From positions 1 to 28,115 of IMG/VR virus record IMGVR_UViG_3300037509_000017: DNA of 28,115 nucleotides. One strand, given 5' to 3'. Origin of the DNA: a virus (Duplodnaviria; Caudoviricetes). A program made the position numbers and the translations under genes. Position 1 is the first letter of the stretch; each line of letters opens with the position of its first letter. The notes beneath the pieces were generated by a model. That model was not told the origin of the DNA, ran no database searches, and saw nothing but the letters and a program-made list of their open reading frames with translations. Shown one piece after another: positions 3,488-21,651 of the stretch.

Positions 3488-3496
3488 GTCTCAACC

Positions 3497-4783: not shown

Positions 4784-4802
4784 CCTAACCCCCGCCTCTC
4801 AG

Positions 4803-5258
4803 TTATTTAGATTTCTCTTCCTTAGAACTATCTCCTGATTCTTGGTCGTTGGCAACTTGCTCCGCCGCCTTCTCGGCGTTCGCCACGACTTCTTCAGGAT
4901 TTGCCCCAGCCACACGAGCTACGGGTTCCTCGGTTTCACCTTCTACGATCTCGCCGCCCCGCTTGAGCCAGCGATTGATCATATCGGCACCGACGATCTC
5001 GTATACCTGTCCCTTGAGGAAGATCGGATTATCCAGGTCGTTGTAATACTTGTTCTCAGAGAAGCGCATCTTCACTGTTTTCTTGGCCTGGTCCTCATCG
5101 TTCAGGGTCGGGGTGCTTGCACTCAGGGCAGCCTGAGCCGATTGAGCAAATTCTTGCTTCAAGGTATCAGTCTGCGGAGTGATGTGGTGCTTGGAAGCAT
5201 CTTTTGAGAAATGCTTCCCTTTGTGGGTTTTATGGGTCTCATGGTGTTTACTTGGCAT
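4803..5258 (-). CDS. Hypothetical head-module protein
   Basis: 151 aa ORF with GAGGT RBS; His/Lys-rich N-terminus, acidic C-terminus; lies between head genes. Confidence 0.75.
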   Translation of the reverse strand: MPSKHHETHKTHKGKHFSKDASKHHITPQTDTLKQEFAQSAQAALSASTPTLNDEDQAKKTVKMRFSENKYYNDLDNPIFLKGQVYEIVGADMINRWLKRGGEIVEGETEEPVARVAGANPEEVVANAEKAAEQVANDQESGDSSKEEKSK

Positions 5259-5284
5259 AGTCTACCTCTTTCTTTGTGGTTGTT

Positions 5285-5320
5285 AAAAAAGAAACGGGAA
5301 GCCTATGCGGCTCCCCGTTC
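5285..5320 (-). terminator. Rho-independent terminator after capsid/161-aa gene pair
   Basis: Minus strand: GAACGGGGAGCC-GCAT-AGGCTTCCCGTTTC followed by TTTTTT. Confidence 0.75.
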
Positions 5321-5358
5321 CCTTGGGCGATATTTAGCCGCTCTCTGCCTGGGCCGTA

Positions 5359-5844
5359 TTAGACGGCAGAGGAGTAAGCGGGAGCTTCGGTCGCACCGTG
5401 GCCGATGGCGATAACTGTTCCCAGTTGAGCGCCGCCAGCATCAGTGAGATCGAGAGACACATAGCGATTGCCTTCGCTAAGCTGCTCTTGAAGAACTTCG
5501 AACACCACGATGCTTGCGTTGTCGCCAAGCAAAGAGTGGAGGTCGTAGCTGTCAGTCTCAGTGTTTGGCTGAACTTTGGTGAATGAGGTAGCATTTCCTA
5601 CTTTGTGGAAGTACGGATTGCTGATCGCAAGTGGAGCCGGAGTTCCAGCGGAAGGGACACTGTGCTGCTTCAGCGCGAAGGTGTGAGCATCAGTGGTAGT
5701 GCCTGCGCCGAGGATGGCAACGAAAGACACGCGCTTGAACTTGCGCATGTCGATACGACCACCAGTGTTGGCTCCGGTGTTGAGGTCTACAGGTCCGATG
5801 ATCGTCTTCACGATCCCTTGTTCCATTAAAAGTGCTTCTTTCAT
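5359..5844 (-). CDS. Capsid-associated protein (possible decoration/cement protein)
   Basis: 161 aa, strong AAGGAG RBS, immediately downstream of major capsid and upstream of a terminator; function inferred from position only. Confidence 0.7.
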   Translation of the reverse strand: MKEALLMEQGIVKTIIGPVDLNTGANTGGRIDMRKFKRVSFVAILGAGTTTDAHTFALKQHSVPSAGTPAPLAISNPYFHKVGNATSFTKVQPNTETDSYDLHSLLGDNASIVVFEVLQEQLSEGNRYVSLDLTDAGGAQLGTVIAIGHGATEAPAYSSAV

Positions 5845-5894
5845 GTTTTCTCCTTAAAGAAATTGTTTAAAGTCTCTGGGTTGTTTCAAAGTTT

Positions 5895-5927
5895 AGCGGC
5901 CCGATTCTGATTCAGAACCGGGCCGCT
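5895..5927. other. Long GC-rich stem-loop between capsid gene and 161-aa gene
   Basis: AGCGGCCCGATTCTGA-T-TCAGAACCGGGCCGCT near-perfect inverted repeat with no clear U-tract (attenuator, stabiliser or processing site). Confidence 0.6.
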
Positions 5928-5933
5928 GCTAAA

Positions 5934-7211
5934 TTAGCGTGCTTCGAGAAGAACGATTGCCGACATCGCGTAGTTACCGAATTCAGTGGTAACTGGTGCA
6001 GTGAAAGGCACTTTACCGTCAACCCGGAGTGAGAACCGGAAAGAGGTGATCTCACGATCGAAGTGCAAGTGGATCGAAGTCGCAGACTTGATTCCAGCCG
6101 CCTTACGGATCATGTAGTAGTAGCTCAGGTCAGCGAAAACGATATCGCCAACATCACCAAGGGCTGGCATTCCGCCCATGAGAGGTACAACCGGACGACC
6201 GAGAAGGGTCGCATACGGAGACTGGTTCATCTGGCTGCCAGGAGTCAGATAGATGAAGTTGTCGTTCGCATCTTTCAGCAAGCGAAGTTGTTCTTCAACC
6301 GCTGGGTTGATGTACCAAACTGCGTTCGGACGAGAGCTTGGGAACATGCGAGAATACATTTTCACGATATTTTCAGCTTGAACCGAATCAGCCGCTTGAC
6401 CAGACTCTTTGCTCACAGTCACTGCGAAGCTAGAGTTGATGATCCCGAGTGGCTTTCCAACACCGTTTCCGGTGAGGATTGCGCTGTTCACTTTATGCAT
6501 GATTGCATTTGGAGCAGCGGCCATGATGTAGGACTCAAGGGCAGTCGCATCTTCTAGAAGCTCGTCGGTAGCCTTAACGAGGGCTGCGAGCTTCTGCAAG
6601 CGCCAGCTTGCCTGCTTGAAAGAAGGCTTGCTCTCAGTGATAGGAGCACCTTCTGCGGTCCAGTACGCCTGAATCCCGTTGTTCCAAGGCTGAGCCTCGT
6701 CCACGTTGATGGTAAGTGCGTTACCGCCAACTTGGAAAGAAGTCGTGCGAGCCATGAGGGAATCATCGCCAGCAAGTTTCTTCAGGATGGCATTGCTGAT
6801 TTCTTCTGGAACGAGGAAACCACCATCTTCACCAACAGACTCTTTCATTACAGAGTTCTGGAGGCGCTTGTCGAGTTCACCAGTTTGGCCAGCTTTTTTA
6901 ACTGCCATGAGCCATGCTCCGGCAGATTCAAAGCCGCCCATTTTCTGGCCGCGATCAACGCCGCCAGAAACCGATGGAGTAGTTGAAGTTGCAGCCGGAA
7001 CAGTCTTGCGACCAGTGGAGGTGTTAGCACGAGCTTTCATTGCTTCCATTTTCTCCGCAGCGGCAAGCTGGGTGTTGAGGGACTCGAACTCAGAGTTCAA
7101 GTTCTCGATTTGGTTGAGTTGGTCTTCAGAATAGCCGTCATCGCCAGCGGAAATACCTTCCAGGGATGCAGCGATCTCGGCAAGACGGGCGCGAATTTGT
7201 TCGATGTTCAT
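5934..7211 (-). CDS. Major capsid protein, HK97 fold
   Basis: 425 aa; coiled-coil delta-domain-like N-terminus, DGGFLVPEE, AYWTAEG, TDELLED, ILTGNGVGKPLGI, TLLGRPV, FRFSLRVDG. Confidence 0.95.
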   Translation of the reverse strand: MNIEQIRARLAEIAASLEGISAGDDGYSEDQLNQIENLNSEFESLNTQLAAAEKMEAMKARANTSTGRKTVPAATSTTPSVSGGVDRGQKMGGFESAGAWLMAVKKAGQTGELDKRLQNSVMKESVGEDGGFLVPEEISNAILKKLAGDDSLMARTTSFQVGGNALTINVDEAQPWNNGIQAYWTAEGAPITESKPSFKQASWRLQKLAALVKATDELLEDATALESYIMAAAPNAIMHKVNSAILTGNGVGKPLGIINSSFAVTVSKESGQAADSVQAENIVKMYSRMFPSSRPNAVWYINPAVEEQLRLLKDANDNFIYLTPGSQMNQSPYATLLGRPVVPLMGGMPALGDVGDIVFADLSYYYMIRKAAGIKSATSIHLHFDREITSFRFSLRVDGKVPFTAPVTTEFGNYAMSAIVLLEAR

Positions 7212-7271
7212 TTTTCTTCCTCTCCTTCAGAGAAATTGTTTTTGTTAGTACCTACCCATCGGCGAGATGCG

Positions 7272-7991
7272 CTATTTGCGATCAATACGCTTCAGGACTT
7301 TTTCTTTCAAAGCATTCACTTTCATTGCAGTTGCTTCTTTCTCAGAAAAATACTTTCCTGGTTTTTTAGCAATCCAACGAGAGTTGATGGCGCTTGCGGC
7401 GATTGCCACCGTATCTTCTACCTTGGAATCGACGAAGCCCATATCAATGGCTTCATCAGCGCCTAACCAAGTTTCCTTTTCTAGCATTGAGCGAAGTTCG
7501 CTCTTTTCCAGTCCAGTTCTCTTAGCGTAGATTCCAAGCATTTGTTCTTCAACGTCCATGAGCCTGTTCACGGTGTTGTCTAGGTCCATGCGGTTCCCCA
7601 TGCTGATGGTCCACGGCAAGTGGATCATGAAAAGGGCACCTTCTCCGATTTTGATTTCATCGCCCGCAAGTGCGATGATCGATGCGATCGAAGCAGCAAG
7701 GCCATCAATGTAAATTATTTTCTTCGCTTTGTGTTGGCGAAGACGATTGTAAATTGCGATCCCGTCGAACACGTCACCACCTGGAGAGTTGATGCGAACA
7801 TGGATAGTGTTCACAGTCTCTGGAAGTCTTTTGAGTTCGTCTGAAAATTGTTTTGCAGAAATCATGGAGCCATCGTTCCAGTAATCCTGGCCGATGCCCG
7901 CATAGACAACAACCTCAGCTTCGGTAGCTGATTTGTTCATCACTTTGAGCGGACTGCCTGCTCGGCACCCTTTGAAGTCTAGTAATCGCAT
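7272..7991 (-). CDS. Prohead maturation protease, ClpP/S14 family
   Basis: RINSPGGDVFDG, DGLAASIAS (catalytic Ser), FMIH (His), ETWLGADEA. Confidence 0.95.
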   Translation of the reverse strand: MRLLDFKGCRAGSPLKVMNKSATEAEVVVYAGIGQDYWNDGSMISAKQFSDELKRLPETVNTIHVRINSPGGDVFDGIAIYNRLRQHKAKKIIYIDGLAASIASIIALAGDEIKIGEGALFMIHLPWTISMGNRMDLDNTVNRLMDVEEQMLGIYAKRTGLEKSELRSMLEKETWLGADEAIDMGFVDSKVEDTVAIAASAINSRWIAKKPGKYFSEKEATAMKVNALKEKVLKRIDRK

Positions 7992-8008
7992 GGATTCCCC
8001 TTGTTTCG

Positions 8009-8037
8009 ATATTGGGCAAGAATTGCACCCCTGTAAA
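8009..8037 (-). promoter_or_regulatory. sigma70-like promoter for protease/capsid genes
   Basis: TTTACA-17 bp-CAATAT upstream of AAGGGG RBS of the protease. Confidence 0.45.
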
Positions 8038-8052
8038 GAATAAAATACTGGT

Positions 8053-8322
8053 TTACTTCAGTCGGTACAAGTGGAAAACAAAAGGACCAAATTGGAAGGA
8101 CGCCAAGTAAGTGGCGCTCAATGGAATTTCGTGTCCAGTGCCGTACAATCCGAAGTCAAATTCTTCGCGGGCGATGCCATCTTGAACCTCTAGCCAAACA
8201 TGAGGCCGATCTCCTTGCAACATCAGACTGAGGAATTTCCAACCTTTAGGCAGATCGAGAGTGAAAGTTCTCTCCTGCATGGGTATAGGCCATTTATAAA
8301 CGGTCTTGAAGTTGTTCACCAT
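8053..8322 (-). CDS. Small conserved phage protein (DUF7352-like)
   Basis: 89 aa; TVYKWPI...LDLPKG...LSLMLQ...YGTGHEIP...YLASFQ..FVFHLY; start overlaps terL stop. Confidence 0.7.
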   Translation of the reverse strand: MVNNFKTVYKWPIPMQERTFTLDLPKGWKFLSLMLQGDRPHVWLEVQDGIAREEFDFGLYGTGHEIPLSATYLASFQFGPFVFHLYRLK

Positions 8323-9995
8323 TACAGAGTTCTTATCCCGCGCTGCTCATAAACGGAAGTGTCTTCTCCCTCAGCCAGCCACCCTCCGAGCGCCATTAAG
8401 ATGGCAACAATAGGGTCGATTTTTAATTTCTCATGGGACTTCCTTGGAAATACGTTCCCATTGTGATCTTCCTTACCGATTACGTTCCCCAGACACCATC
8501 TTAGAAGCTTTGAGCCATTATGCCTAATTTTGCCCTGCCTCATGAGAGCGTCGAGCTTCTTCATCGGCTCGGAAAAATTTGCCGTGTTCATGGAGAACTT
8601 CACCATCTCCATGTCGTCGGCCATCTCTTGGGCCATCTGGGTACAGTTCCATGGGTCGTAATAGCACGCTTCCACCCGGTGAACTTTTTTTATTGCTCGA
8701 AGTTCTTCTTGAATTTTTTCGTAATTGATCGCAGCCCCTTTGGTCTGAATCAAACTTCCATCGGCCAAACAGTTCTCGTAAAAGGGGTTCTTCTTTTGCT
8801 TGATCGTGTCCTCAGGAAGGAAGCTTCGATCAAAGATGTAGTACATATCTTTGACCTTGAAGATGGTTCCAATGGAGGTGATATCGATGTGAGACGCAAG
8901 GTCGAGTCCCAATCGGCAAGATTTGCCTACAAACTTTTCCAAGGTAAGGGTGGGGTCCGCACATGCATCCCAAACCTTGAGATCGTAAAATGCATTAGCT
9001 TCCGAAATCCACTCGTTCATGTGCTTGATTCGGAAGTTCGGGATATCAGAAGGAGTAACAAGGGCCTTCTCTACCTTCGCTCGAAGGGAGTCCTGATCGA
9101 CAGAGATTCCGAGTCCGGGGTTTGCCTTAATCCAGACATTCTCATCGGCCCAATCGTCTTCTTCGTCCAGGGTGTATACTGCGGAGAAGAAGGTTTCATC
9201 CTGCACTTCTCCCGTGGCAACTTTCTTCGCGAACTGGGTCTGGAAATATCCCACGGATTGGGTGTCTGATCCCGCAGTGGTGATGCACATGAGGAGCGAG
9301 TCTTTCCGCTTGCTCATCCCGGAAGTGATGACCTCGAAAACAGGGCGGTTCATTGCATGAAGCTCATCGCACACAGCGAGAATGTCTTTCAATCCGTCCA
9401 TCCCACCGTAATCGGCAGAGAGTGCGCGGGCATGGGAGTTCGATTCTTCGTGGACAATCGAGTGAGCTAGAACTTTGGTTCCGGTATGCCGAAGGAAAGA
9501 GGCGTTCTTCTTGGCCATTGAGCGAGCAGAATCGAGAACGATTCGAGCTTGGTCTCTTTTGGTAGCCACCGTGGAAATATAGTTCCCGTTTGGATTGTCG
9601 AGAGCGAGAAAGTAAAGAAGCATTTGGGACGCCATCGTGGACTTCGCGTTCCCTCGGGCCACTTCAAGGTGGGCAGTCCTGAATCTTCGGAATCCGGTGG
9701 TCTTATTCATGAACCCCATAATGTTCATGAACACCCAGCACTGCCAGGGAGCGTAGATGATGTTCTTCGTAGGCCAGTGGCCTTCAACGTGCTGGAACTT
9801 CTGAACGGTGCGAAGGTACTTCTCGGCCTTGTCGGGACTAAACCAGAAATTTGCTTCCTGGTTGTCCACATCCAGTAAATATCTTTCGCACGCGCCAATG
9901 ATGAACTTGTTCGCGACGATCTTCTTCGCCACAACGTCCAGCGCGTATTGGTGCCCTTTAGCACAGTTCGGATATTTCTTTGGGTCAAACTCCAC
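8322..9995 (-). CDS. terL: Terminase large subunit (Terminase_1/COG4626 type)
   Basis: 557 aa; PWQ, RRFRTAHLEVARGNAKS (Walker A), AVCDELH (Walker B), ITTAG, WIKANP, GLDLAS, YDPWN, KIDPIVA. Confidence 0.95.
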   Translation of the reverse strand: MEFDPKKYPNCAKGHQYALDVVAKKIVANKFIIGACERYLLDVDNQEANFWFSPDKAEKYLRTVQKFQHVEGHWPTKNIIYAPWQCWVFMNIMGFMNKTTGFRRFRTAHLEVARGNAKSTMASQMLLYFLALDNPNGNYISTVATKRDQARIVLDSARSMAKKNASFLRHTGTKVLAHSIVHEESNSHARALSADYGGMDGLKDILAVCDELHAMNRPVFEVITSGMSKRKDSLLMCITTAGSDTQSVGYFQTQFAKKVATGEVQDETFFSAVYTLDEEDDWADENVWIKANPGLGISVDQDSLRAKVEKALVTPSDIPNFRIKHMNEWISEANAFYDLKVWDACADPTLTLEKFVGKSCRLGLDLASHIDITSIGTIFKVKDMYYIFDRSFLPEDTIKQKKNPFYENCLADGSLIQTKGAAINYEKIQEELRAIKKVHRVEACYYDPWNCTQMAQEMADDMEMVKFSMNTANFSEPMKKLDALMRQGKIRHNGSKLLRWCLGNVIGKEDHNGNVFPRKSHEKLKIDPIVAILMALGGWLAEGEDTSVYEQRGIRTL

Positions 9996-10224
9996 TTAAA
10001 TCATCTCCACGGGGAAAATACGAAACCCACCGAGGGTAGTCTCTGGGTCTCACCTTGATATTTTCCACTGCGAGATGTTTGAAGCCTTTATCGAGTTGCT
10101 TCTTCCAGGCTACCTTGAGTTCGGCAGTCTCTCCAGTATCGTCCAGCACTTCCAAAACTTCAAGGAACATGCAGCAATCCCCAAACTGCCTCCAAAATTT
10201 TGACTGTGTGAACTTCAACTCCAT
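9985..10224 (-). CDS. Hypothetical protein between terS and terL
   Basis: 79 aa ORF overlapping both neighbours, GAGG RBS. Confidence 0.65.
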   Translation of the reverse strand: MELKFTQSKFWRQFGDCCMFLEVLEVLDDTGETAELKVAWKKQLDKGFKHLAVENIKVRPRDYPRWVSYFPRGDDLSGV

Positions 10225-10775
10225 TCGTCCTCTTCAGATTTGGATGCCTTACCGCGAGATTTATCTTTCTTCGGGATAAGGTCGAGAAGTTTTGAGTAAG
10301 TAGCGATCTGAGTAAGGACTTTCAGGCGCTCATTTACCTCTGGGAATGTTTTTCTTTGATCTCCAAGGACGGTGGCCACCCGGAAAGTGTGTCCATTTGC
10401 CATGATGAAATCATCAAGCGACCGAAGCTCAACTCGAAGGCGGCAGAGAGCCTCAAGCAGGCCAAGGTGTGCTGGCTTGAAGTTATCTCTCGCTACCAAG
10501 TCCTCAATAGACTCAGCCCAAAACTTTCTGAAAAGAGGGTGGGTGCTCGGTGGTGGATATTCTAGGCTATCGTAGTCATCTTCAACTTTCCAATCGGAGT
10601 GTGTCTTTCCGGTCTCCGTAGAAAAAGGCTTTGCTGGAACAAGATGTTTTCCGCCTTTCCCCTTTTTCAGATTGCCGTACTTGTTGTTGTCAGTGACAAC
10701 CTCAGTTCCATCCGAAAGAGTGGCCACTCTCTTCCGTGGCTTTTTCTTCTTAGAGGAGATCGGTGTCTCGGACAT
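10215..10775 (-). CDS. terS: Terminase small subunit (P27-like), probable
   Basis: Start moved to MSETPISS (AGGAGG RBS); PPP..HPLFRKFW...LEALC...GHTF...P...LLDLIPKKDKSR resembles the P27 pattern; upstream of terL. Confidence 0.7.
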   Translation of the reverse strand: MSETPISSKKKKPRKRVATLSDGTEVVTDNNKYGNLKKGKGGKHLVPAKPFSTETGKTHSDWKVEDDYDSLEYPPPSTHPLFRKFWAESIEDLVARDNFKPAHLGLLEALCRLRVELRSLDDFIMANGHTFRVATVLGDQRKTFPEVNERLKVLTQIATYSKLLDLIPKKDKSRGKASKSEEDEWS

Positions 10776-12462
10776 TTTCAAGCCCTCCTTGTGATGATGC
10801 TTCAAACTCTTCTCGAATTTTTCTCCACTGGAACTCAGACATTCCAGGTGGCCTTACTGGCATGTTCATAATTACTTCATCGTCGTGTGGGTCCAGCTTG
10901 ATTTCACCTTTTCGGCGAACAAGGCCATGGATCGGACGAATCCAGAAATCTTGAAGTGTGTTGCTCGTAGTGTTCTCAACCTCGAATACTTTTTTCCCTT
11001 CCAGGTCGCAGTAGGTCTCGAAGAAAGCTTTCACGGTAGAAGCGTCACGGTAGTCTTTTGATTCATATTCTTTCTTGTGCCTGAGTGCTTCTTCTACCTT
11101 CGACCAGAGGAAGGCTCCACGAGTTGCATCCCAGCCTTTGAACGGGCCATTTTTATTCTCGACTGTAAGAGCAAGTACCGCGATCTTCTGCCAGCGGGAC
11201 ATCGAGGTGTGAGCAAGTTTCCAGTACATCGGTCCTTGGTATTCCAGGTTCGGCCACTTCGCTGCGTGCTTTGGCCCGATGGTGGTAATCCATTTTGCGA
11301 TCTGGGCGGTCATCTTCACATCAAACTTTGGGTGAGTATCGTCTAGTTTTTCTGAAAGCTCTCCGATCTCTTCTGGAGTAAGCGCCGCCGTGAGCGCCTT
11401 ATTTCCAAGAACGAGGGGTGCGAACTTGCGTGAGTTAAATAAAATGTAGTTATCGCGTGGGTAGTTGTTAGAGATAACCATCGAACAAAAAATCTGAGTC
11501 GAGCGGGAAGCATCCTGCCCTTTCCTTTCGATCGAGATGTATTCATTCTGGTATTCCTTCATTCGTGGCTCCATGTCGGGGCCGTACTTCAACTCATCGA
11601 ACCAAATGAGGGTGTTCTCTTCCATCTGGGAATTGAATTTACTTTGGTTCGCGCCGAAGGTCTCTTTCTTCCCATCGGCAGAATTGTATTCCCCGTGAAG
11701 GGCGCGGATCAAAAGCTTCAGGCGGTTCTTTCCAACGCCAGGAAGTCCGCAAAGAACAAGAAAGGTGTATGCCCGTGAGGTCATCGAGGTGTAGAGCCAA
11801 GCGTAAAAGTAGTTTCTCTCTTCTTTGCTCGGAATCACATGCTGGATCATTCGAAGAACGAGAGAAGGCGGCTTCGCTGGAAGCTTCGCCCACTCGCCTG
11901 GGTTCCGCATCTTCCAGAGTCTCCAGGCTGGAGGAACGTAGCTGTTGTAATAGTCGATCGGCGTTTGAGTTACCGGGTTGATCAGGCGATGAACCCCAGG
12001 CGGACGGTGTGGAAGATACTTAGGCACCACACCCGTGGCGCGATGGACGATCTCTTTGGGACCGATACCGCATTTCTGAATATAGTATTGGCCCGAGATG
12101 CTGATGTCTTTAAATCCATCAGGTGTTGTGCAGAAATATTTCTTCATGCCTGGGTCACTGGAAGAAGTATCAACGTAGAGGGTCAAGTGGGAAAGTTCTG
12201 GCGGGCATGAGCCACCTGGCCCAGCACCAAGTTCTTCCACGGCGTATTCATCAAGGAGTCGTTCCATCTCTGTGTGGTCTTGGATGCCATCGAGGATTTC
12301 TGGAAAATTTTTAAGTTGCTTGCCGAGGGCTTTCATCAGGGCTTGAGAGAAACTTCCTACGGTCAAAGTGCCTTCTGTGGTTCGTACCGGACGAGATTTT
12401 TCTGGATCGTAGCTTTTGATGACAATTCCTGCCGCATCGAGCGCGGCTTTAAGTGCAGACAT
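10750..12462 (-). CDS. SF3-type replicative helicase (DUF5906 / NrS-1-like helicase domain)
   Basis: FLVLCGLPGVGKN (Walker A), KFNSQME, LIWFDE (Walker B), ISIERKGQD, VISNN; start at 12462 has GGGGG RBS (ORF extends to 12489). Confidence 0.8.
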   Translation of the reverse strand: MSALKAALDAAGIVIKSYDPEKSRPVRTTEGTLTVGSFSQALMKALGKQLKNFPEILDGIQDHTEMERLLDEYAVEELGAGPGGSCPPELSHLTLYVDTSSSDPGMKKYFCTTPDGFKDISISGQYYIQKCGIGPKEIVHRATGVVPKYLPHRPPGVHRLINPVTQTPIDYYNSYVPPAWRLWKMRNPGEWAKLPAKPPSLVLRMIQHVIPSKEERNYFYAWLYTSMTSRAYTFLVLCGLPGVGKNRLKLLIRALHGEYNSADGKKETFGANQSKFNSQMEENTLIWFDELKYGPDMEPRMKEYQNEYISIERKGQDASRSTQIFCSMVISNNYPRDNYILFNSRKFAPLVLGNKALTAALTPEEIGELSEKLDDTHPKFDVKMTAQIAKWITTIGPKHAAKWPNLEYQGPMYWKLAHTSMSRWQKIAVLALTVENKNGPFKGWDATRGAFLWSKVEEALRHKKEYESKDYRDASTVKAFFETYCDLEGKKVFEVENTTSNTLQDFWIRPIHGLVRRKGEIKLDPHDDEVIMNMPVRPPGMSEFQWRKIREEFEASSQGGLENVRDTDLL

Positions 12463-12504
12463 GAAACCCCCTGTTTCAACGAAATCCATTAACGATGTTC
12501 TTGC

Positions 12505-12533
12505 ACTTTAGAGGGATCATGCTAAGTTGTCAA
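12505..12533 (-). promoter_or_regulatory. sigma70-like promoter of helicase-terminase operon
   Basis: TTGACA-17 bp-TAAAGT. Confidence 0.65.
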
Positions 12534-12616
12534 CTACGCGCTCCCAGCACTTTGCCCCTGGAATCTTCCGTTAACGATGCGATGAAGATATTCTAGTAAA
12601 GAGTTGGGGGCGTTTT

Positions 12617-12937
12617 TTATTTTTTCGGGGGCACCCAGGAGTACTGTGCTAGGGCGGCGAGCTTTCGGAAACGATCTGGATTTTTATCTTCGCCCCGAAG
12701 TCTTGCTTTTACTTTTTCAACAAGCCCTTCTCGTAAACGTCGAATCGCATCTACTCCTGTTACCCCTATTGCGGTGATGCCGGAGGATTCTGGGCCTTCT
12801 GTTCTTTTCCAGGTGGCGTACCAGTTTTTAGTGTTGTGGTTTTTGGAGATGCAAATCGTGATGCCAGAATCAAAGTAGAAACTTCGACTGGTGGTATGGG
12901 GCGGGACTCTGTGAATTCGGGTTCGTATCTTGTTCAA
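12617..12937 (-). CDS. Hypothetical basic protein
   Basis: 106 aa, TTG start with AAGGA RBS, same strand as neighbours. Confidence 0.55.
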   Translation of the reverse strand: MNKIRTRIHRVPPHTTSRSFYFDSGITICISKNHNTKNWYATWKRTEGPESSGITAIGVTGVDAIRRLREGLVEKVKARLRGEDKNPDRFRKLAALAQYSWVPPKK

Positions 12938-12965
12938 AATTTTTCCTTACAGTAGTTAAGTAGTA

Positions 12966-13054
12966 CAACCTCCCGAGTTTCCAATATTAAGAGAGAGAAA
13001 AAATAATATATAGAAAATACTTCTCTGTATGGATTTGGGAAACTCGGGAGGTTG
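12966..13054. repeat. Perfect 17-bp inverted repeat around a 55-bp AT-rich spacer (candidate origin)
   Basis: CAACCTCCCGAGTTTCC (12966-12982) / GGAAACTCGGGAGGTTG (13038-13054); partial third copy GGAGGTTGG near 13122. Confidence 0.75.
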
Positions 13055-13158
13055 GCTTTTTTTCGGCTCTAAGTTATTGTAATTACAACAGAAGTAGGTG
13101 TTGCTCGAATATAAGTGGTCCGGAGGTTGGAATCGGGTCACTTTTTGACGATTTTTAG

Positions 13159-13494
13159 TCATTTTGTGAGGGTGGCAGTTCCTTGTTTTCTGCCGTTTTT
13201 CTCGGGAAATTCTACAAAATATATCTCGATGATATCGTCGCTGGAGGCGTGTTCCAGTTCAGGCCAAACTTTGAAAGCGGCCTCAGTCATCTCAATGTCT
13301 CGCCTCTGAAGGTCTCTAGCTTCTTGGTCTGCATTTTTCAAAAATGGGCGTATCGACCACTCCCATTCTTGGTTTAGGGGGGAGTGAGCGCACCCGAAAG
13401 TGGCAAAAATTAGGGTTGAGTAGGCTAGAAAAGCATGGTACTTCCTGGTAGGAAGTCGTTTTTCACGGCAGTCTTTTTTGATGGGTTTCAACAT
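13159..13494 (-). CDS. Hypothetical protein, possible lipoprotein
   Basis: Start moved to MLKPIKK (overlaps upstream stop); basic N-terminus, hydrophobic stretch, TFGC lipobox-like motif. Confidence 0.5.
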   Translation of the reverse strand: MLKPIKKDCREKRLPTRKYHAFLAYSTLIFATFGCAHSPLNQEWEWSIRPFLKNADQEARDLQRRDIEMTEAAFKVWPELEHASSDDIIEIYFVEFPEKNGRKQGTATLTK

Positions 13495-14244: not shown

Positions 14245-14409
14245 ATCCATGGAGGCCGCAAAACCGGGGGTGCTCGGCCTAAAAGAGCGTCAAACCCCAC
14301 CTGGCCGAGCTAATAACGCATATGGAGGTCCATCATCTCAAACATATGCCTCATGAGTTTTCGAGGGCCAGGCGATCGGGGCGATTAAACGAGTCGTTCG
14401 TTGACTCCC

Positions 14410-14661
14410 CCTACTAGAATCGTTGAATATCAATGGGATAAGTTGCGAACATCAATGGGATTAGTTTAAATATCAACTTGAGTCGTTGCGAGACGCTACT
14501 GGATTAATTGAACATCAATGCATTCACTTGATCGAGTTAATTAGAATCGTTGTGGCACTACGAAAGTAGTTTATTTCTACTATTTCAGTTGATCGAGTGA
14601 ACGAATCCAATTGAATCAATGAATATAGTTGAGGGATAGGGGAGTAAACAATAGTAGTTTA
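14410..14661. repeat. Left array of 12 degenerate palindromes TCAAC-N7-GTTGA
   Basis: 17-bp units start at 14410, 14430, 14452, 14473, 14495, 14515, 14537, 14557, 14576, 14598, 14616, 14645; plus an N9 variant at 14386. Confidence 0.9.
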
Positions 14662-14715
14662 ATTTAAATTTGAAATATCTTTTAGAGTTGAATGAAAGGC
14701 AGTGAGGGAATAAAC

Positions 14716-14731
14716 AAGTTGTTAGCAACTT
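14716..14731. promoter_or_regulatory. Palindromic operator-like site
   Basis: AAGTTGTTAGCAACTT upstream of lipoprotein gene. Confidence 0.7.
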
Positions 14732-14764
14732 GATTAGAGGGAATAAATAAAGTACAATAAAGGA

Positions 14765-15031
14765 ATGAAATTATCAGTTACTTTATTCCTAGTTCTAGGG
14801 TTAGTAGGATGCGGCAATAGTGGCAATTCCGGGCCTTATGTTCACTATCCTAAAGGCACTTCAGTAGGCACGTTTACACCGAATCAGACGGCCTGTAATT
14901 GCCCATGCATTAACTCTCAAGCTTGCGATTCCCTCAACTGGCACGGCAACTATAGTTCTATTGCATGTATCACGGCGGGCGGCCTAACCCTTTCACCGAA
15001 TAATGTGAATACTTGCCAGTATTCAAACTAA
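14765..15031 (+). CDS. Cys-rich lipoprotein
   Basis: MKLSVTLFLVLGLVG-C lipobox, six further Cys; AAGGA RBS. Confidence 0.8.
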   Translation: MKLSVTLFLVLGLVGCGNSGNSGPYVHYPKGTSVGTFTPNQTACNCPCINSQACDSLNWHGNYSSIACITAGGLTLSPNNVNTCQYSN

Positions 15032-15065
15032 AAAAGCCTTGCCGGGCTAGTACCTGGCAAGGCTT
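15030..15065 (-). terminator. Terminator between convergent genes
   Basis: AAGCCTTGCCGGG/CCTGGCAAGGCTT stem with A-tract on the left (U-tract on minus strand). Confidence 0.75.
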
Positions 15066-15091
15066 AGGGCAAGGGCCAAATTTTAGGAATC

Positions 15092-15787
15092 TCAGGCCGT
15101 TCGACGGCGTGTAGAATTATAACAAGATCGATAGCCGAAAATATTGTATTCCAATCCCTTAATATCTAAAAACTCTTGCTTGCGTCTCGCATGATCACGG
15201 CGGGCCGATTCCCGGCGAACATTTAAACGAATCGCCGATTTAAAGGCTTTAGAATCGATAGGCACAATTAAATGATTCAAGTTGAATCGTGCCACTAGTT
15301 GATTATGTTCTCTCATTTCGTCTCGAATACTTTTTAGATACCATAAACCGAAAGGCTTTACTTTCATTTCAGATTGCAAGCGCCGGAATGTTTCGGCCTG
15401 AGATTCAAGGTATTTTTCGGCAAGCGCCGTCAACTCGGAATCACTGATTCCGGCCCGGATTGCATCGCAAGCGGCCTCAACTTTTAGAACGAATTGCCCG
15501 GCATCGGTCAAGGCCTGTAATACTTCACGGCTATGGCCACTAGTGGAATTAGAATAGTTCGAAAAATTCACGATTGAAACGGCTTGCCCGTGAAAGGTTA
15601 GGCCCATGCGGGCAAGTAAATAATGGCGGCCATAACTGAACATATCACGGCCTTGAAAGTAAGTAGATATCAGGCCGCGCGCGCCATTCCTGGCATTGTA
15701 TTTACTGCACGCGTAGTCTTGAGACTGCTTTACATAGAGCGATGCCACGGCCTGAGAATTAGTAAAAACCTGCTTAACTCTTTTCAT
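15092..15787 (-). CDS. Hypothetical basic protein of the cassette
   Basis: 231 aa, GAAAGGAA RBS; FSYGRHYLLAR...YSNSTSGH motif resembles small phage early proteins. Confidence 0.75.
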   Translation of the reverse strand: MKRVKQVFTNSQAVASLYVKQSQDYACSKYNARNGARGLISTYFQGRDMFSYGRHYLLARMGLTFHGQAVSIVNFSNYSNSTSGHSREVLQALTDAGQFVLKVEAACDAIRAGISDSELTALAEKYLESQAETFRRLQSEMKVKPFGLWYLKSIRDEMREHNQLVARFNLNHLIVPIDSKAFKSAIRLNVRRESARRDHARRKQEFLDIKGLEYNIFGYRSCYNSTRRRTA

Positions 15788-15983
15788 TGATCTTGATTCC
15801 TTTCACTTCAATAGCGCCATGGTCTAACATGAGTTTATCTATGTAATCCCTAACTAAGGCGCTCAAATTTAGATTGTTCTCTTCTACGAAAATTTTATGC
15901 CGTCTTTCAATATTGATTCCAGTAGTAACGGCCTCTAGTTTTTCAACTCGATTTTTCCGGTACAATTTTAGATTGACTCGCAT
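15774..15983 (-). CDS. Small ribbon-helix-helix-like DNA-binding protein (putative)
   Basis: 69 aa; VTTGINI strand, helix, then NLNLSALVRDYID helix typical of RHH/CopG folds. Confidence 0.55.
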   Translation of the reverse strand: MRVNLKLYRKNRVEKLEAVTTGINIERRHKIFVEENNLNLSALVRDYIDKLMLDHGAIEVKGIKINEKS

Positions 15984-17114
15984 TTATTCCCTCACTTCTA
16001 TGATTTCGCCGAAAGGCGCTTTAGGCCTGGAATTGCCAGTTACAGCCCATAAAACCGGATATTCCGGGCAATCTCCAAAGTCATCACAATATAAATCAGT
16101 TAGGAAAATCAGGCAGGCAGGCGGGCAATCTTGAGAGTCAACGTATTTAATAACCGGGCTAAAAGCCGTGCCGCCGCCGCCGATCGGTGAAATTTTTAAT
16201 TCTTCATCTTGATCAACGAACTCCGTTTTACAGATTACAGAATCAAAGTAAACAATTTCAGTTGAACTAGGCCGCATATCTTGACGGATTGTATTGATTT
16301 CAGCGGCGAAATTTTTCAGCAATTTAGCATCTACACTGCCTGAACAATCGACGGCAATAATAACCTTGCCCATTCTTTCGCCCATGAGACTAGGCAAATA
16401 AATATCCTCAGCTAAAAAACGGCGTTTAGGCCGTGCAAAACTAAAATCAATTTTCGCACGCTCTGATAGGTATTTTCTAAGGGCATCGCGCCAGTCAACT
16501 TTAGATTGCACGATTCCATCTATTAGCCTTTCAAGGCCGCCCGATAACTTGCCCTGCATCTTCGCTGCGTTTTTCGCTGCAATGACTTTTACTTTCAGTT
16601 GCGCCGATTTTTCGGCAATCGTGGCGGCATCGGTTTTAGATTGCCCGTTGTTAGTACCTGAATCGTGAACTTGATCTAAAGCGCCGCCGTCATCACCTGG
16701 CTTTTTACTTTCGTCGGATTCCGGCAATAGCTTATAAACCCCCTCAGCGGTATTATTGCCCTGCTTTACTAGGCTAGGATTATACAGCCCGCCTTTAGGC
16801 ATCGCGCCGATTCTATCATTGACTAGCAATTCATTGATTACATAGTCGGCGGCCTGATTCCATCTATTAGGGCCACGATTCCCGCGCCTGCCCATGTGAT
16901 CAAATACACAATGGAGAGTCTCATGGGCTAAAACGAAAGTTAGCTCTGACATGGTGAGGGAATCCACAAAATCAGGATTATATAAAATCGTCTCTCCATC
17001 GGTTGCCATGGTAGGAATGTCCGATTTTTCAATCATAGGCATTGAAAGCAGGATAGACGCGAAAAATGGTTGATCAATGATTAGGCCCGCGCGGGCCTTA
17101 GCTAGTTTATTCAT
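15984..17114 (-). CDS. Metallopeptidase-like + VWA protein (DUF2201-like)
   Basis: PTMATDG, LAHETLH (HExxH), WNQAADYVIN, VDWR, VDCSGS (MIDAS), GGGGTAF, IFLTDLY, YPVLW; start moved to MNKLAK. Confidence 0.9.
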   Translation of the reverse strand: MNKLAKARAGLIIDQPFFASILLSMPMIEKSDIPTMATDGETILYNPDFVDSLTMSELTFVLAHETLHCVFDHMGRRGNRGPNRWNQAADYVINELLVNDRIGAMPKGGLYNPSLVKQGNNTAEGVYKLLPESDESKKPGDDGGALDQVHDSGTNNGQSKTDAATIAEKSAQLKVKVIAAKNAAKMQGKLSGGLERLIDGIVQSKVDWRDALRKYLSERAKIDFSFARPKRRFLAEDIYLPSLMGERMGKVIIAVDCSGSVDAKLLKNFAAEINTIRQDMRPSSTEIVYFDSVICKTEFVDQDEELKISPIGGGGTAFSPVIKYVDSQDCPPACLIFLTDLYCDDFGDCPEYPVLWAVTGNSRPKAPFGEIIEVRE

Positions 17115-17415
17115 TCCTGGAATCTCCCTTGTAAAGATAAATTTTATCGTGGCCACGACTAGAGGCAGTCTCTAAAATTTCGAATAGATCATACTCACTG
17201 AAATCATTTTCATTGATTCCGTAGTGGTATCCGGCGCGGGCCGCATTTTCGTGCAACTCATCGGGAATTACTGCCAGTGAATACCCGGAATTAAGAGACT
17301 GAAAATAAATTTTCCCGCCCGATATGGTCATATCAAGTTCATCCGTTGAGCAGTCTAAAACCTCGTGGCAGATATCAATTATTTTATTATAAAATTCATT
17401 TAGTCTCAGTTGCAT
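17107..17415 (-). CDS. Hypothetical acidic protein
   Basis: 102 aa ORF overlapping neighbours, GAAAGG RBS. Confidence 0.65.
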   Translation of the reverse strand: MQLRLNEFYNKIIDICHEVLDCSTDELDMTISGGKIYFQSLNSGYSLAVIPDELHENAARAGYHYGINENDFSEYDLFEILETASSRGHDKIYLYKGDSRNE

Positions 17416-17563
17416 AAAGGCCTTTCAAGTACTCCATTGCATCACGTTTTAAATCGAATCGCGCTACCCATTCCCATGATCTAGTAGACTCATTATAAAA
17501 CTCTATATCCCATGCCGGGCGGCTATTATTTTCTTGTTCTCGTTTTTCGATTCGGTAGCCCAT
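17396..17563 (-). CDS. 55-aa leaderless protein (MGYRIEKREQENNSRPAWDIEFYNESTRSWEWVARFDLKRDAMEYLKGLYATETK)
   Basis: Fills the intergenic gap; ATG 6 nt after a -10 hexamer; below ORF-track cutoff. Confidence 0.65.
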   Translation of the reverse strand: MGYRIEKREQENNSRPAWDIEFYNESTRSWEWVARFDLKRDAMEYLKGLYATETK

Positions 17564-17569
17564 ATAAAT

Positions 17570-17624
17570 ATGTTACTAAGTTGTTAACAACTTGTCAATT
17601 AAGATAGCAAGTTGTTATCAACTT
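17570..17624 (-). promoter_or_regulatory. Internal promoter with two operators
   Basis: TTGACA-17-TAACAT (17570-17598); perfect palindrome AAGTTGTTAACAACTT in the spacer (17578-17593); AAGTTGTTATCAACTT (17609-17624). Confidence 0.8.
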
Positions 17625-18492
17625 ATTTCAGGCCGCCCATAAACGCGCCCATGCGAGACTCAATATCTGCAAGCGCCTTTCGGGCCTTGTCTCTTTCGTT
17701 GTTATCCTTTCGGATTGTATCGGTATCAATGGAATCAACTAAGGCGCGGGCGTCATCGCTCAACTGATCTAGTTTAGAATCATTTGAGATATTGAGCGCC
17801 GGAATCAGTGAGGATATTTCGGCGATATTTTCTAAAAGTGAATCCCTGAAAATAGCTTTAGGGTCTTTTAGTTTTTCAGTAGCGGCCTTTAATACCTGGA
17901 ATAAACGGCTTGCAGCGTCTCTCATTGCCGCCGTCTCAATGGCTTTCATTTTCTTTTCGAATTCCCGTTTTTCGGCATCGGATACCGCTACCCGAAAATC
18001 TTTAGAATCAGGCATGGGCAGAAAATCAACTGAGATATTGAATTTATCCTCAATATTTTCCGGGTACTCGCTAGAATCGTATAAATCCCCTAGCCGTTTT
18101 TCGGCGTCGATTTTTAATTGAGGATAGGCCGCCGAAAATGCCTTGACGGCCTGATCGAATTCGGCCTTGATTTTTCGCATTTCAGTCTGAAATTTCAGAT
18201 AGTTTTTACTTGAAATAATTCGAGTACCATCACTCATCCAAGGTAAAGTATTTTCGTAGTAAAATTTTCGGGCCTGGCTTGCGATAGTTGAGACGGCCTC
18301 TAATTCCTTAGCGCCTGGCAATAGTTTTTTATGGTAGTTGCCCGCGCCTGTATCGGCTTTATGGGCAAGGTTAGCCGTTTCGGTAGCGCGTCTATCTAAT
18401 TTTCGGGCGGCCCATTGACTGATATTTACAGAGACAAGCAGGGCACGAGTTGAGAGGGAGTTAACTGGTTTAGTTGATTTCTGATTTTTCAT
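17623..18492 (-). CDS. DUF3150-like helical protein associated with phage AAA/VWA pairs
   Basis: 289 aa; LLVSVNISQWAARKLD, TLPWMSDGTRI, LGDLYDSSEYP, IFRDSLLENI, LNISND; family name from recall. Confidence 0.7.
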   Translation of the reverse strand: MKNQKSTKPVNSLSTRALLVSVNISQWAARKLDRRATETANLAHKADTGAGNYHKKLLPGAKELEAVSTIASQARKFYYENTLPWMSDGTRIISSKNYLKFQTEMRKIKAEFDQAVKAFSAAYPQLKIDAEKRLGDLYDSSEYPENIEDKFNISVDFLPMPDSKDFRVAVSDAEKREFEKKMKAIETAAMRDAASRLFQVLKAATEKLKDPKAIFRDSLLENIAEISSLIPALNISNDSKLDQLSDDARALVDSIDTDTIRKDNNERDKARKALADIESRMGAFMGGLK

Positions 18493-18514
18493 TTTAAATT
18501 TTCCTTTCGATTTA

Positions 18515-19051
18515 TTAGCACGCAGTGAATTCGGTATGCCGTAGCGGCATGATCATTAGAACAATTTCGCCGGATTGGTCTAAGGCAATGACCGGGGATT
18601 TTTCGTCTCTATACATAGGTTTAATTTCAGGCGAGAAAAACAGGGCCGCGCTGTATTCAATATCCAAGATCGGCGCGGCATCTTGCCGGAATGCCGCCAC
18701 TACTTGAGTATAGTTATCCGGGCGGCCTCTAAAATATCCCTCAATGAAATGGGTTTTAGAAAGATCAAGCGGGCGATACTCAGCTATTTTCGTTGAGTTG
18801 ACTAGTTCCTCTATTCTCATTGAATGGGATTCCGCGCCGTTGAGTCTCTCAATAGTTCGGGCGATTCTATCGCGCTTTACTCGATTAGTGAGGCCGATTA
18901 GTCCGCTTGCCCTGGTACGCGGCAAGCTTAAAAGCCATGTAATCCTAAATAGCCATTGTTTATTAGTGACAAAGTTGCCTTGAAAATAAAGCGTTTCATT
19001 TTTAGGGATTTTTTTAAATCGGCAAGTTGACGGCAATTTGATTTTATTCAT
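18515..19051 (-). CDS. Hypothetical protein
   Basis: 178 aa, GAAAGGAAAA RBS; C-terminal SPVIA...LMIMPLR. Confidence 0.7.
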   Translation of the reverse strand: MNKIKLPSTCRFKKIPKNETLYFQGNFVTNKQWLFRITWLLSLPRTRASGLIGLTNRVKRDRIARTIERLNGAESHSMRIEELVNSTKIAEYRPLDLSKTHFIEGYFRGRPDNYTQVVAAFRQDAAPILDIEYSAALFFSPEIKPMYRDEKSPVIALDQSGEIVLMIMPLRHTEFTAC

Positions 19052-19065
19052 TTTAGTTTTTCCTT

Positions 19066-20073
19066 TCAGGTTAGAAGATCGGCACCATCTTTAGAGGCCC
19101 AATCAATGAAATCAGTTGTGTTAGCGATATCGGAATCTTTCGCCATGCAATCTTTTACGAATAAGACCGAAAATTCAGGCGGCAAGCGTTTAATATAGGT
19201 CAAGGCCCGCCCGAAATTGGCAGGCGTAACCCTTGAAACAAGCGCCCCGACAATCGCGTATATGGTAGCGGCATCTTTAGGAATCGCTGATTTTTTAGGG
19301 TCTAGCATGATTGCATCCGGGTTAGGCAATTGCCGAAAAATTTTCAGGAATGCCAGCAACTCACTTGCCGGGCCTTGTCCCACGTCTCCACTGAATACAT
19401 TGAATTCCAGTGAACTAGGGATAACTCCAAGTCTCGCGCTGATTCCCTCTACCCATGCGCGGGGAGTTGCGTTTATCTCTTGCTTTGAATCATAGTTAGT
19501 TAGAAGCTCCGGGCGGAATCGAATAAAGGCCACTACTTCAGGTTTCACGCCATTTTCTAAGGCCCATTGAGACCAATCATCTAGGCTTGCGTCTAGTTCT
19601 ACGCGAGTCATCCTGTTTGAAAGATGACCTAGAATTCTATTAGCGCCTGCCCGATCACTTGCACGATTGCCAGTTGCTATAATTGTCCATCCCTTTTTAA
19701 GTTTATGACCGTGGATATCGCGCTCCTGTACTAGGTTAGCTAAAATTTTCTGCGCCGATTGATCGGCCTGAGGCAATTCGTCGATTAGAAAAATCCCTTG
19801 CTCAGGGCAATCGGAATTTTCAAGCGGGAATTTTTCAGCGGATACAATAAACTTGAGTTGATCTTTTTTAGCGCCGTGAACTACTGGCATTCCATAATCC
19901 TCAGGCTGTAACAGTGGCGCGTGAATCGCTTTAAATCCTATTCCTAATTCGGCGGCAACTTGCGCCACTATTTGAGTTTTTCCAAGGCCCGGCGATGACT
20001 CAACCATGACGGCGCGTTTAGAGTCACATTGACGGATTGCTTTGATTAGTTGCTTGAATTCACTAGGTTTCAT
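19066..20073 (-). CDS. MoxR-like AAA+ ATPase (AAA_5 type)
   Basis: SPGLGKT (Walker A), FLIDE (Walker B), IATGNR, LSNRM (Arg finger), ATPRAW (sensor 2). Confidence 0.9.
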   Translation of the reverse strand: MKPSEFKQLIKAIRQCDSKRAVMVESSPGLGKTQIVAQVAAELGIGFKAIHAPLLQPEDYGMPVVHGAKKDQLKFIVSAEKFPLENSDCPEQGIFLIDELPQADQSAQKILANLVQERDIHGHKLKKGWTIIATGNRASDRAGANRILGHLSNRMTRVELDASLDDWSQWALENGVKPEVVAFIRFRPELLTNYDSKQEINATPRAWVEGISARLGVIPSSLEFNVFSGDVGQGPASELLAFLKIFRQLPNPDAIMLDPKKSAIPKDAATIYAIVGALVSRVTPANFGRALTYIKRLPPEFSVLFVKDCMAKDSDIANTTDFIDWASKDGADLLT

Positions 20074-20124
20074 TTTCTATTTTCCTTTCGAGTTATCGGC
20101 CTTTCAAACTAGCCGTATATCCCT

Positions 20125-20159
20125 AGTATAGTTGTTAACAACTAAGTTGTAAACAACTT
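20125..20159 (-). promoter_or_regulatory. Promoter of AAA operon with tandem operators
   Basis: TTTACA-17-TATACT (20125-20153) covered by TAGTTGTTAACAACTA (20129-20144) and AAGTTGTAAACAACTT (20144-20159). Confidence 0.8.
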
Positions 20160-20216
20160 TCTATATTAGATTGTGAAAAATTTGATAGCGAGCTGTCAGA
20201 CGATGTTATACAGCGT

Positions 20217-20232
20217 TAGTTGCTAACAACTT
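20217..20232. promoter_or_regulatory. Palindromic operator-like site
   Basis: TAGTTGCTAACAACTT; reverse complement matches the 14716 site at 15/16 positions. Confidence 0.7.
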
Positions 20233-20279
20233 AGTGAGGGGTCACTATACATATAGAGCGGAAACACCGCAGAGCGAAT

Positions 20280-20517
20280 TAAACGGCAATCGTTTAGGCG
20301 CTCAACTGATTCAGTTTACAATCGTTCAACTATCCTAGTTGAGCCTTGCCAGTAAACGAAATCCGTTGAGTCTCTAAACTAGTCTCGTTGATTTCTACTA
20401 TTCCCGTTGAGGCCCGCAACGAATCCAGTAGAAATTAAACGATTCCAGTTGAGACGCGCAACGAGTTCAATTGAAAGTTCAACTAATCTGGTTGAATCGC
20501 TCAACTGATTTCGTTGA
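20280..20517. repeat. Right array of 11 degenerate palindromes TCAAC-N7-GTTGA
   Basis: 17-bp units start at 20280, 20302, 20326, 20353, 20375, 20394, 20416, 20436, 20458, 20479, 20501. Confidence 0.9.
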
Positions 20518-20610
20518 TTTTCCCATCTCTAATGTATAGGAGATGATGAGTGGGTGCCGCGCCACCTTGTAAAACACAAGTTACCGGAAAATTTTTTGGG
20601 AGAATTTTTT

Positions 20611-20979
20611 ATGGCCAGAGAAAGAACAGCATTGCTCGGTAAGAAATCCGCCAACCTTGAGATGGGCGGGCTGTCTGTACAGCTTGCAGTTTTGATGCGG
20701 AGACTTGAAATTCTCAACAGGATTCTAACGAAGTCTCAGCACCTGTTACTACAAAAAATTCCAGACATCTACGAGCACGGTCCCGATCTATCGGGAGATT
20801 TGTTCAAGTATCAAGAGTGGGAAAAAATGAAAACACACCAGACTGAATTGAAACAGGAGTGGAACGAGATTTCAAAAATTGTTGAGGAGACCCACCGAGA
20901 AATTTCCAAGATAAAGAAGAGAATGAAAGTGGCCCAGGTGAAGGAAAGGCTGCAAGGCAAAACTTCTGGCTCGCCATAG
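20611..20979 (+). CDS. Hypothetical coiled-coil protein
   Basis: 122 aa from ATG with GGGAGA RBS. Confidence 0.65.
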   Translation: MARERTALLGKKSANLEMGGLSVQLAVLMRRLEILNRILTKSQHLLLQKIPDIYEHGPDLSGDLFKYQEWEKMKTHQTELKQEWNEISKIVEETHREISKIKKRMKVAQVKERLQGKTSGSP

Positions 20980-21059
20980 GCCGCCGCCCCCTAAAAAATC
21001 GCTCCGTCTTAAAAAAACACACCCCCTGGGTTACTATCCCCCTGGGTAAGGAGAACCAA

Positions 21060-21572: not shown

Positions 21573-21651
21573 GGCCCCGTAGCTCAGAGGAAGAGTGAAC
21601 GATGACAAAGCTCTCGTTAGGTCGATGGTTCGAGTCCATCCGGGGCATCCA
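21573..21651 (+). tRNA. tRNA-like gene, isotype undetermined (11-nt anticodon loop)
   Basis: GGCCCCG-TA-GCTC/GAGT D-arm, AACGA/TCGTT anticodon stem, AGGTC variable loop, GATGG-TTCGAGT-CCATC T-arm, CGGGGCA-T-CCA. Confidence 0.75.

Follow-up and report, generated by a model that had tools for sequence, protein, structure and literature searches.

A compositional island beside a predicted cos end of a tailed phage, likely the first DNA to leave the capsid

Gene content of the cassette

We analyzed IMGVR_UViG_3300037509_000017, a 28,115-nt fragment (the window) representing part of the genome of a tailed phage whose head genes are of the HK97 type by family profile searches of its proteins. An earlier note on this DNA had singled out a 6.2-kb cassette lying between two arrays of palindromes. 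We find that the cassette forms a compositional island with sharp bounds, starting at a predicted cohesive end (cos), and is likely packaged last and ejected first. Related viral records and loci carry G and L numbers (L075 is G001, L021 is G003, and L058 is Tunturi_3). The genes of the cassette are as follows:

14765..15031, plus strand: lipoprotein-signal protein, 88 aa, with a lipobox visible in the sequence
15092..15787, minus strand: p231, 231 aa, phrog_7247, the family of phiCbK gp008, which lies in the phiCbK terminal repeat
15774..15983, minus strand: ribbon-helix-helix (RHH)-like protein, 69 aa, candidate regulator (feature match 0.92, a lead only)
15984..17114, minus strand: metallopeptidase-vWA protein with DUF2201_N and DUF2201 (Pfam E values, 1.6e-46 and 3.3e-23)
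17107..17563, minus strand: two small open reading frames (102 and 55 aa) downstream of an internal promoter that has P2 palindromes at 17578 and 17609
17623..18492, minus strand: DUF3150-like protein, 289 aa (Pfam E value, 0.0013, below the cut-off)
18515..19051, minus strand: protein of no assigned family, 178 aa, with homologues in L013, L024, and L043
19066..20073, minus strand: MoxR-like AAA+ ATPase, 335 aa (phrog_1297; E value, 1.2e-68)

The ATPase has 879 homologues at E values of 1e-60 or lower. For the vWA protein, the PHROG label "HNH endonuclease" conflicts with the Pfam assignment; a homologue of the DUF3150-like protein is annotated DUF3150 in phage MinM2. Predicted structures of the DUF3150-like protein and p231 had mean predicted local distance difference test (pLDDT) scores of 95 and 92, and fold searches with both returned only generic helical-bundle or uncharacterized viral matches, suggesting no function. 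The 88-aa protein, whose family matches were sub-threshold and to lipoproteins only, is a candidate superinfection exclusion protein. Homologues of the RHH-like protein lie at an island end in L013, L021, and L036. As the earlier note had stated, the reading frames on both sides are transcribed away from the cassette, and family profile searches found no recombinase or transposase family among its proteins. Family searches likewise found no nuclease family among the island proteins, and an Rfam scan gave no matches.

A predicted cohesive end at the left edge

Two features define the outer edge of the cassette:

14366..14374, minus strand: predicted 9-nt 3′ cohesive end (cosN), possibly 10 nt, from an HK97-like layout and contig breaks
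14331..14341, minus strand: GAGATGATG motif located 24-35 bp from cos in the arm where packaging starts, a candidate small-terminase (TerS) site

On the minus strand, this edge has the G-run, TCAA, and 27-nt cos layout of HK97 and AS1, with the same spacing. In run X1, a possible source of the window, the assembly breaks between 14365, where one contig stops, and 14369, where the following one begins; this is one of four junctions in 17 kb, and none falls in 50-9500. The G004 and L064 records begin at the equivalent of 14365. The two ends of the linear G001 are in register with exactly 9 nt missing between them, the pattern that a chewed 3′ overhang would be expected to leave. For HK97 the overhang is given as 10 nt (PMC11331095, PMC9410871; here and below, papers are cited from the portions of their text that were available). 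We conclude that cos almost certainly lies at the left edge of the cassette.

The terS and terL genes lie across cos from the island, in a set that family profile searches identified as a Terminase_4 TerS, a phrog_9 large terminase (TerL), and an HNH partner. Packaging should therefore run from cos toward terS, so that the island would enter the capsid last. DNA packaged last is ejected first, and the island is very probably the first-ejected segment.

In G004, GAGATGATG stands equally far from the start of the contig; G001 and L064 lack it in their first 45 bases. In HK97, TerS binds a single 15-bp site at +15..+29 (PMC11331095, available text). The palindrome arrays are on the last-packaged side and HK97 TerS binds the other side, which makes packaging or terminase loading, one of the functions that the earlier note had offered for the arrays, unlikely. 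GAGATGATG also points outward at both edges of the cassette (14331-14341 and 20539-20547), and the inner edge may have a second site for small terminase or for nicking.

The earlier note had proposed read coverage as a check on termini. At the contig level there is a break at the left edge and no twofold step in depth. The X1 contig over the island has a depth of 8.1, compared with 6.5-9.3 elsewhere, contig depth being a coarse measure, and it runs unbroken across the inner edge. The undoubled depth and the contig crossing the inner edge argue against a long terminal repeat. G001, which is linear from cos to cos, has one island copy.

A sharply bounded compositional island

The island itself is a single feature:

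14375..20539, no strand: compositional island, likely packaged last and ejected first

An order-3 model trained on the cassette core gave change points at 14414 and 20539, where the two arrays have their outer edges. The score was flat over 6 kb with step-like edges, and ramps of at least 2 kb fitted worse. Nineteen 5-mers were absent from the island (0.5 expected; 0-2 absent in four control stretches), and GGNNCC (2 versus 31) and ACNGT (4 versus 37) were nearly missing. Asymmetric restriction sites (Biopython list) had an inside/outside ratio of 0.59, compared with 0.77 ± 0.07 in letter-permuted controls (1 of 500); they were also depleted beyond codon shuffles, and several of the missing words are catalogue restriction sites. 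The GC content was 0.44 in the island versus 0.49 outside.

We then used a GC-independent 4-mer signature, trained solely on the window island, with the best segment chosen blind in each genome. In T5 the signature picked 21-9740 (z, 8.8), where the annotated injection stop signal (iss) occupies 9140-10149, and in phiCbK it picked 1601-9880 (z, 8.4), where the terminal repeat occupies 1-10287. Controls scored 2.4-5.0; these were HK97 and AS1, both at about 4 and without a terminal segment, and eight other loci. The cos position, the island, and this blind match to T5 first-step DNA support one option of the earlier note, a terminal, first-injected region analogous to that of T5. In the cultured Acidobacteria phage Tunturi_3, a 7-kb segment (L058:800-8080; 72.8-80.1 kb) scores about 8 with the signature and adjoins a 1.7-kb repeat-rich noncoding stretch.

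A conserved inner boundary in related phages

The inner edge carries an element identified by alignment:

20523..20600, no strand: inner boundary with a CATCTC/GAGATG motif and a conserved A/T-tract element, a candidate injection stop

This element aligned among the window, G004, G003, and G001 and in part in L036 and L044; no alignment was found in G002. The first four belong to the same terminase clade, and composition steps at the inner motif in each of them. Islands ending at the motif are about 2.5 to 6.2 kb long and differ in their genes. The earlier note had regarded the arrays as scaffolds defining a DNA domain: the island edges do coincide with the arrays, and what is conserved is the bounded segment, not the arrays.

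Of the AAA-bearing loci, 15 were scored after duplicates were set aside, and 8 of these had an island at a z score of at least 6, some of them with a different terminase class. In G003 the AAA+/DUF3150/peptidase-vWA trio lies beyond the inner motif and does not carry the signature, with the AAA gene 5.2-6.2 kb from the predicted cos, a distance as in the window. In a tree of 30 AAA sequences, the three signature-negative genes (G003, L014, and L025) form one nested group (87/85) within a nine-row clade that is otherwise signature positive; the L014 and L025 genes presumably lie outside the boundary, as in G003. These comparisons suggest that the signature tracks the boundary, or position, rather than distance from cos or gene ancestry. 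No AAA match was found in G001 (95% complete), G002, or G005.

The short G003 island (L021:5450-8050) encodes the RHH protein and a 500-aa protein without a recognized family, with the AAA trio just outside. The terminal island of G001 (L075:1-2750) has four or five small genes, 138 CTTC words (32 expected), and no TAAA, CTAC, CTAG, or GGAC; these 2.75 kb lack 144 of 512 5-mers. The window, G001, L036, L019, and G007 show a markedly shrunken vocabulary; in G003, G008, T5, and phiCbK the shrinkage is slight. Unrelated perfect tandem repeats occur on the cos side in G004, G003, and L036 and on the inner side in G001, where the array is 39 bp × 6.2, and G002. The edge of the L018 island has a palindrome (L018:8545-8560) that we take to resemble parS. 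Beyond the inner edge of the window, a G/C-run plus A-tract motif at 20975-21000 follows a 141-aa gene and is kept in L013, L021, L036, L083, and G001.

Two palindromes, P1 and P2

The noncoding flanks of the cassette contain the following:

14410..14661, no strand: cos-proximal array of 12 degenerate 17-bp P1 palindromes with a period of about 21 bp (matrix scan)
20280..20517, no strand: inner array of 11 P1 palindromes (matrix scan)
14716..14731, no strand: P2 operator-like palindrome adjoining the -35 element of the lipoprotein promoter
20125..20232, minus strand: main island promoter region with P2 at 20129, 20144, and 20217 (promoter and P2 scans)

Both arrays are real: a matrix built from either one finds every unit of the other (starts, 14410-14645 and 20280-20501), and 16 P1 sites with at most one mismatch were observed versus 0.90 expected (0 of 100 shuffles). 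The earlier note had described the units as TCAAC-N7-GTTGA. The motif holds, with a 7-bp gap favored (12 versus 1-7 at other gaps) and some information in the spacer, and only 3 of the 23 units are perfect, the rest being degenerate. The helical phasing was upheld, with dyads spaced by 20-22 bp and a best period of 21.0 on the left and 21.1 for the outer eight units on the right. The mirror-image arrangement held in part: the same motif is on both flanks, and the mirroring of unit polarity is slight (10.6 versus 10.1 matches of 17), with one 74-nt inverted pair at 70% identity.

P1 matches were not at background level. There were 8 strong matches inside island genes (0.8 in 300 codon shuffles) and none in 14 kb of genes outside, and this enrichment within the cassette implies that P1 marks the whole segment. 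Because the half-sites are kept and the spacers vary, P1 behaves as a dimer site under selection, and we consider it probable that P1 is bound by a protein. Compared by eye, the consensus sequences of IHF and of the lambda Int core did not fit. An exact tandem P1 pattern occurred in eight stretches of viral contigs, and no island, terminase, or primase gene of the window was shared by any of them (there was one weak HNH match). An unrelated 189-kb contig has a 48-bp-period array containing the P1 pattern (L009:9914-10377). A stricter tandem pattern gave no match in GTDB genomes, so no host binder was found there. Since P1 arrays are found in no relative and the tandem repeats of the relatives are unrelated, the arrays are likely lineage-specific protein sites and not a conserved brake; P1 more likely serves a phage protein that caps, tethers, or silences the segment. 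It is unlikely that the array is itself the brake on entry.

P2 has eight sites at two mismatches or fewer (14205, 14716, 17578, 17609, 20129, 20144, 20217, and 26148). The earlier note had seen the same variant just inside each array, and indeed the copies at 14716 and, inverted, 20217 lie 54 and 47 bp inward; as a boundary mark, P2 is ruled out by the eight sites and by its presence in relatives without P1 arrays. Several P2 sites, inside and outside the cassette, overlap the best promoter-like sites. Promoter-like sites as such were not in excess (15 versus 13.1 in shuffles), and only the overlap with P2 is informative. P2 is likely a promoter operator. Its pairing with the RHH protein is imperfect: L036 has the RHH gene and no P2 match, and G001 has P2 and no RHH match in its island. 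L001:5100-11830, from a distant relative without an island, has an 18-bp palindrome before most early genes.

Elsewhere in the window, noncoding stretches upstream of the primase gene (12490-13160), with a 34-bp inverted repeat at 12966-13054, are a candidate replication origin, and ARAGORN reports a tRNA-Val-like gene at 21573-21651 without Rfam support.

Interpretation and alternatives

We favor the reading, with a probability of roughly 0.58, that the cassette is a bounded island extending from a 3′ cos end, last packaged and first ejected, whose entry pauses at the inner boundary; the pause taken alone, argued from analogy with T5, is slightly better than an even bet. In outline, the island would enter the cell first and stall at the conserved inner element, as in T5 first-step transfer. 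Alone in the cell, it would have to evade host nucleases that read motifs, and such exposure would purge its vocabulary. Sigma-70-type promoters would drive expression of the trio, p231, and the lipoprotein; these proteins might disarm the host and let the rest of the genome follow, after which P2 operators would shut the promoters off. A dimeric, lineage-specific protein could bind P1, coat the segment, and form phased filaments at both edges; most plausibly it would cap the leading end, exposed because circularization must await the other cos, or tether or loop the segment. An anti-defense role for the island genes is suggested by their position, by the placement of p231 in first-entering regions, and by analogy with Vcrx089-090. 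A fuller scheme is tentative and, we think, doubtful: two-step injection outside the T5-like phages, in an uncultured cos-phage clade with no terminal repeats or A1/A2, with arrest at the inner element, a vocabulary peculiar to each lineage, and a protein on the phased arrays that caps cos and holds the brake until the AAA+/peptidase-vWA proteins release it.

Several observations weigh against the favored reading. Palindromic 4- and 6-mers are commoner inside the island than outside (1.39 and 1.59), only 7 of 11 islands passed the restriction-site depletion test, and the G001 island has the opposite vocabulary with no depletion of catalogue sites (490 of 500). P1 arrays, which the earlier note had suggested seeking beside AAA/vWA modules, occur in no related locus scanned, AAA/vWA relatives included, an outcome that the earlier note had counted among those refuting its proposal, and there is no tandem array at the inner edge in G004, G003, or L036. 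The best compositional matches, T5 and phiCbK, both have long terminal repeats; the T7 early region matches weakly (z, 5.6, versus controls up to 5.0). The available text of the phiCbK literature contains no statement of two-step injection.

The best-surviving alternative, to which we allow a minor chance, is that the island is the leading end of a genome ejected continuously, with a sharp edge from module exchange at a conserved boundary and P1 as cooperative repressor sites that loop and silence the early module, a silencing loop having been one of the options in the earlier note. The lambda OL/OR sites and mycobacteriophage stoperators are the model. Such sites would suit the 17-bp dyads, their spacing, the P1 copies inside genes, the RHH-like gene, and the variation of islands in gene content and length (2.5 to over 6 kb). 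The flat profile and the loss of the signature by AAA genes beyond the boundary at equal cos distance are then unexplained, and it is P2, not P1, that overlaps the promoters.

It is improbable that the vocabulary was purged against the phage's own early nuclease, or shaped by a local mutational process, with position and timing as in the favored reading. Vocabularies are lineage specific and can be opposite, as the CTTC excess of G001 illustrates, and self-avoidance of this kind has been proposed for T5 (10.1101/866236, available text). However, the island encodes no recognized nuclease family, and its missing words (the 19 5-mers plus spaced dyads) are many and unrelated, several being catalogue sites.

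Very improbable is a long direct terminal repeat of the T5/phiCbK type with arrays loading terminase at both cuts, although the signature is common to both long-repeat phages, p231 is shared with phiCbK gp008, and the GAGATG motif faces outward at both edges; the coarse depth measure, the unbroken inner edge, the outer break, and the single G001 copy oppose it. A horizontally acquired, mobile, or invertible cassette of donor composition, the mobile or invertible form being among the earlier note's options, would fit the lower GC content and the AAA-trio relatives on plasmids and in unrelated phages and is largely refuted, because the signature follows position rather than ancestry, the islands of G001 and G003 share their edges and differ in the genes enclosed, neither a recombinase nor a contig joint was found, and one edge is the genome end. 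In genome contigs, TerL had no prophage relative and the AAA protein a single match of 34 residues.

Comparison with known systems

The pair formed by a MoxR AAA+ ATPase and a metallopeptidase-vWA protein is known from jumbo and N4-like phages, where a part in virion assembly has been proposed (PMC7824862, available text); the ATPase class is the same, and here the pair sits instead in an early terminal segment. Vcrx089 of IncC plasmids is an AAA_5 ATPase with an anti-restriction role on entry, according to the available text of PMC7498323 and PMC11602122. CbbQ_C, present in the Vcrx089 type, is not among the Pfam matches listed for the window, and none of the best 15 of 128 plasmid AAA matches is labeled IncC; no close relationship to Vcrx089 was seen, without a direct pairwise comparison. 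For a plasmid-type centromere, which pairs an RHH adaptor with an NTPase, the RHH-like protein is a lead; ParA, ParM, and TubZ were not found among 44 proteins scanned from this incomplete genome.

HK97-type 3′ cos phages share with the window their terminase, HNH, protease, and capsid families, the cos layout, fixed ends, and a short (here predicted) 3′ overhang that linear assemblies lack. HK97 and AS1 differ in having no terminal island and terS directly after cos; in the window, small genes and the primase gene fill the 3.6 kb between cos and terS. The long terminal repeat of phiCbK shares the compositional signature and a phrog_7247 gene. Unlike the window, phiCbK has a 10.3-kb direct repeat demonstrated by doubled coverage (PMC3556154, available text). 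Other p231 homologues are found within the terminal repeat of CcrBL10 and, in RHEph01, at base 1088; across 65 loci (15 of 80 were left out as short or duplicate) the trend was weak, with 36 inside the best segment versus 16.5 expected and only 4 at a z score of at least 6.

Genome entry in Autographiviridae is driven by transcription, a difference from the window, and in T7 we could fit no sharp edge. Autographiviridae leading regions (T7 and murciaviruses) resemble the island in being first-entering DNA without restriction motifs, as described for murciaviruses (PMC12455610, available text). For T5-like phages (PMC10644984, available text) and murciaviruses (PMC12455610), there is documented selection on the DNA that enters first. 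Within largely open-access main texts, the literature on paused or motif-purged leading segments concerned only T5-like phages and Autographiviridae, with none among cos phages.

T5 remains the nearest parallel. Like the window, T5 has a terminal segment of several kilobases with strong early promoters, the same 4-mer shift (r, 0.43), fewer restriction sites, and a repeat-rich noncoding inner edge (a 23-bp × 4 array at 9574-9668), the last a likeness in form only; the segment also lies at a fixed genome end, as T5 first-step transfer requires. The T5 iss contains DnaA boxes (10.1101/866236, available text), and a T5 nick at 9748 lies in the iss. Unlike T5, the window has a 3′ cos end, no long terminal repeat, different genes, and arrays at both edges. 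A1, A2, and dmp families were absent from nine island proteins of this partial genome, and six island proteins had no match among T5 reading frames in 1-11000. The pause is established for T5 and inferred for the window; by analogy, the segment may work like the T5 first-step region while differing in terminal repeat and A1/A2. The means by which T5 halts and resumes injection have long been in question, with a single model family to study. If our reading is correct, the stop element could be approached comparatively in a second clade, one whose inner boundary is short and conserved, whose islands vary in length, and whose genomes lack a terminal repeat, and a pausing cos phage would have to protect a free end not yet able to circularize. 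From sequence alone, the 4-mer signature identifies DNA that enters first and singles out its genes, among them the common AAA+/DUF3150/peptidase-vWA trio and phrog_7247, as candidate anti-defense or host-takeover factors.

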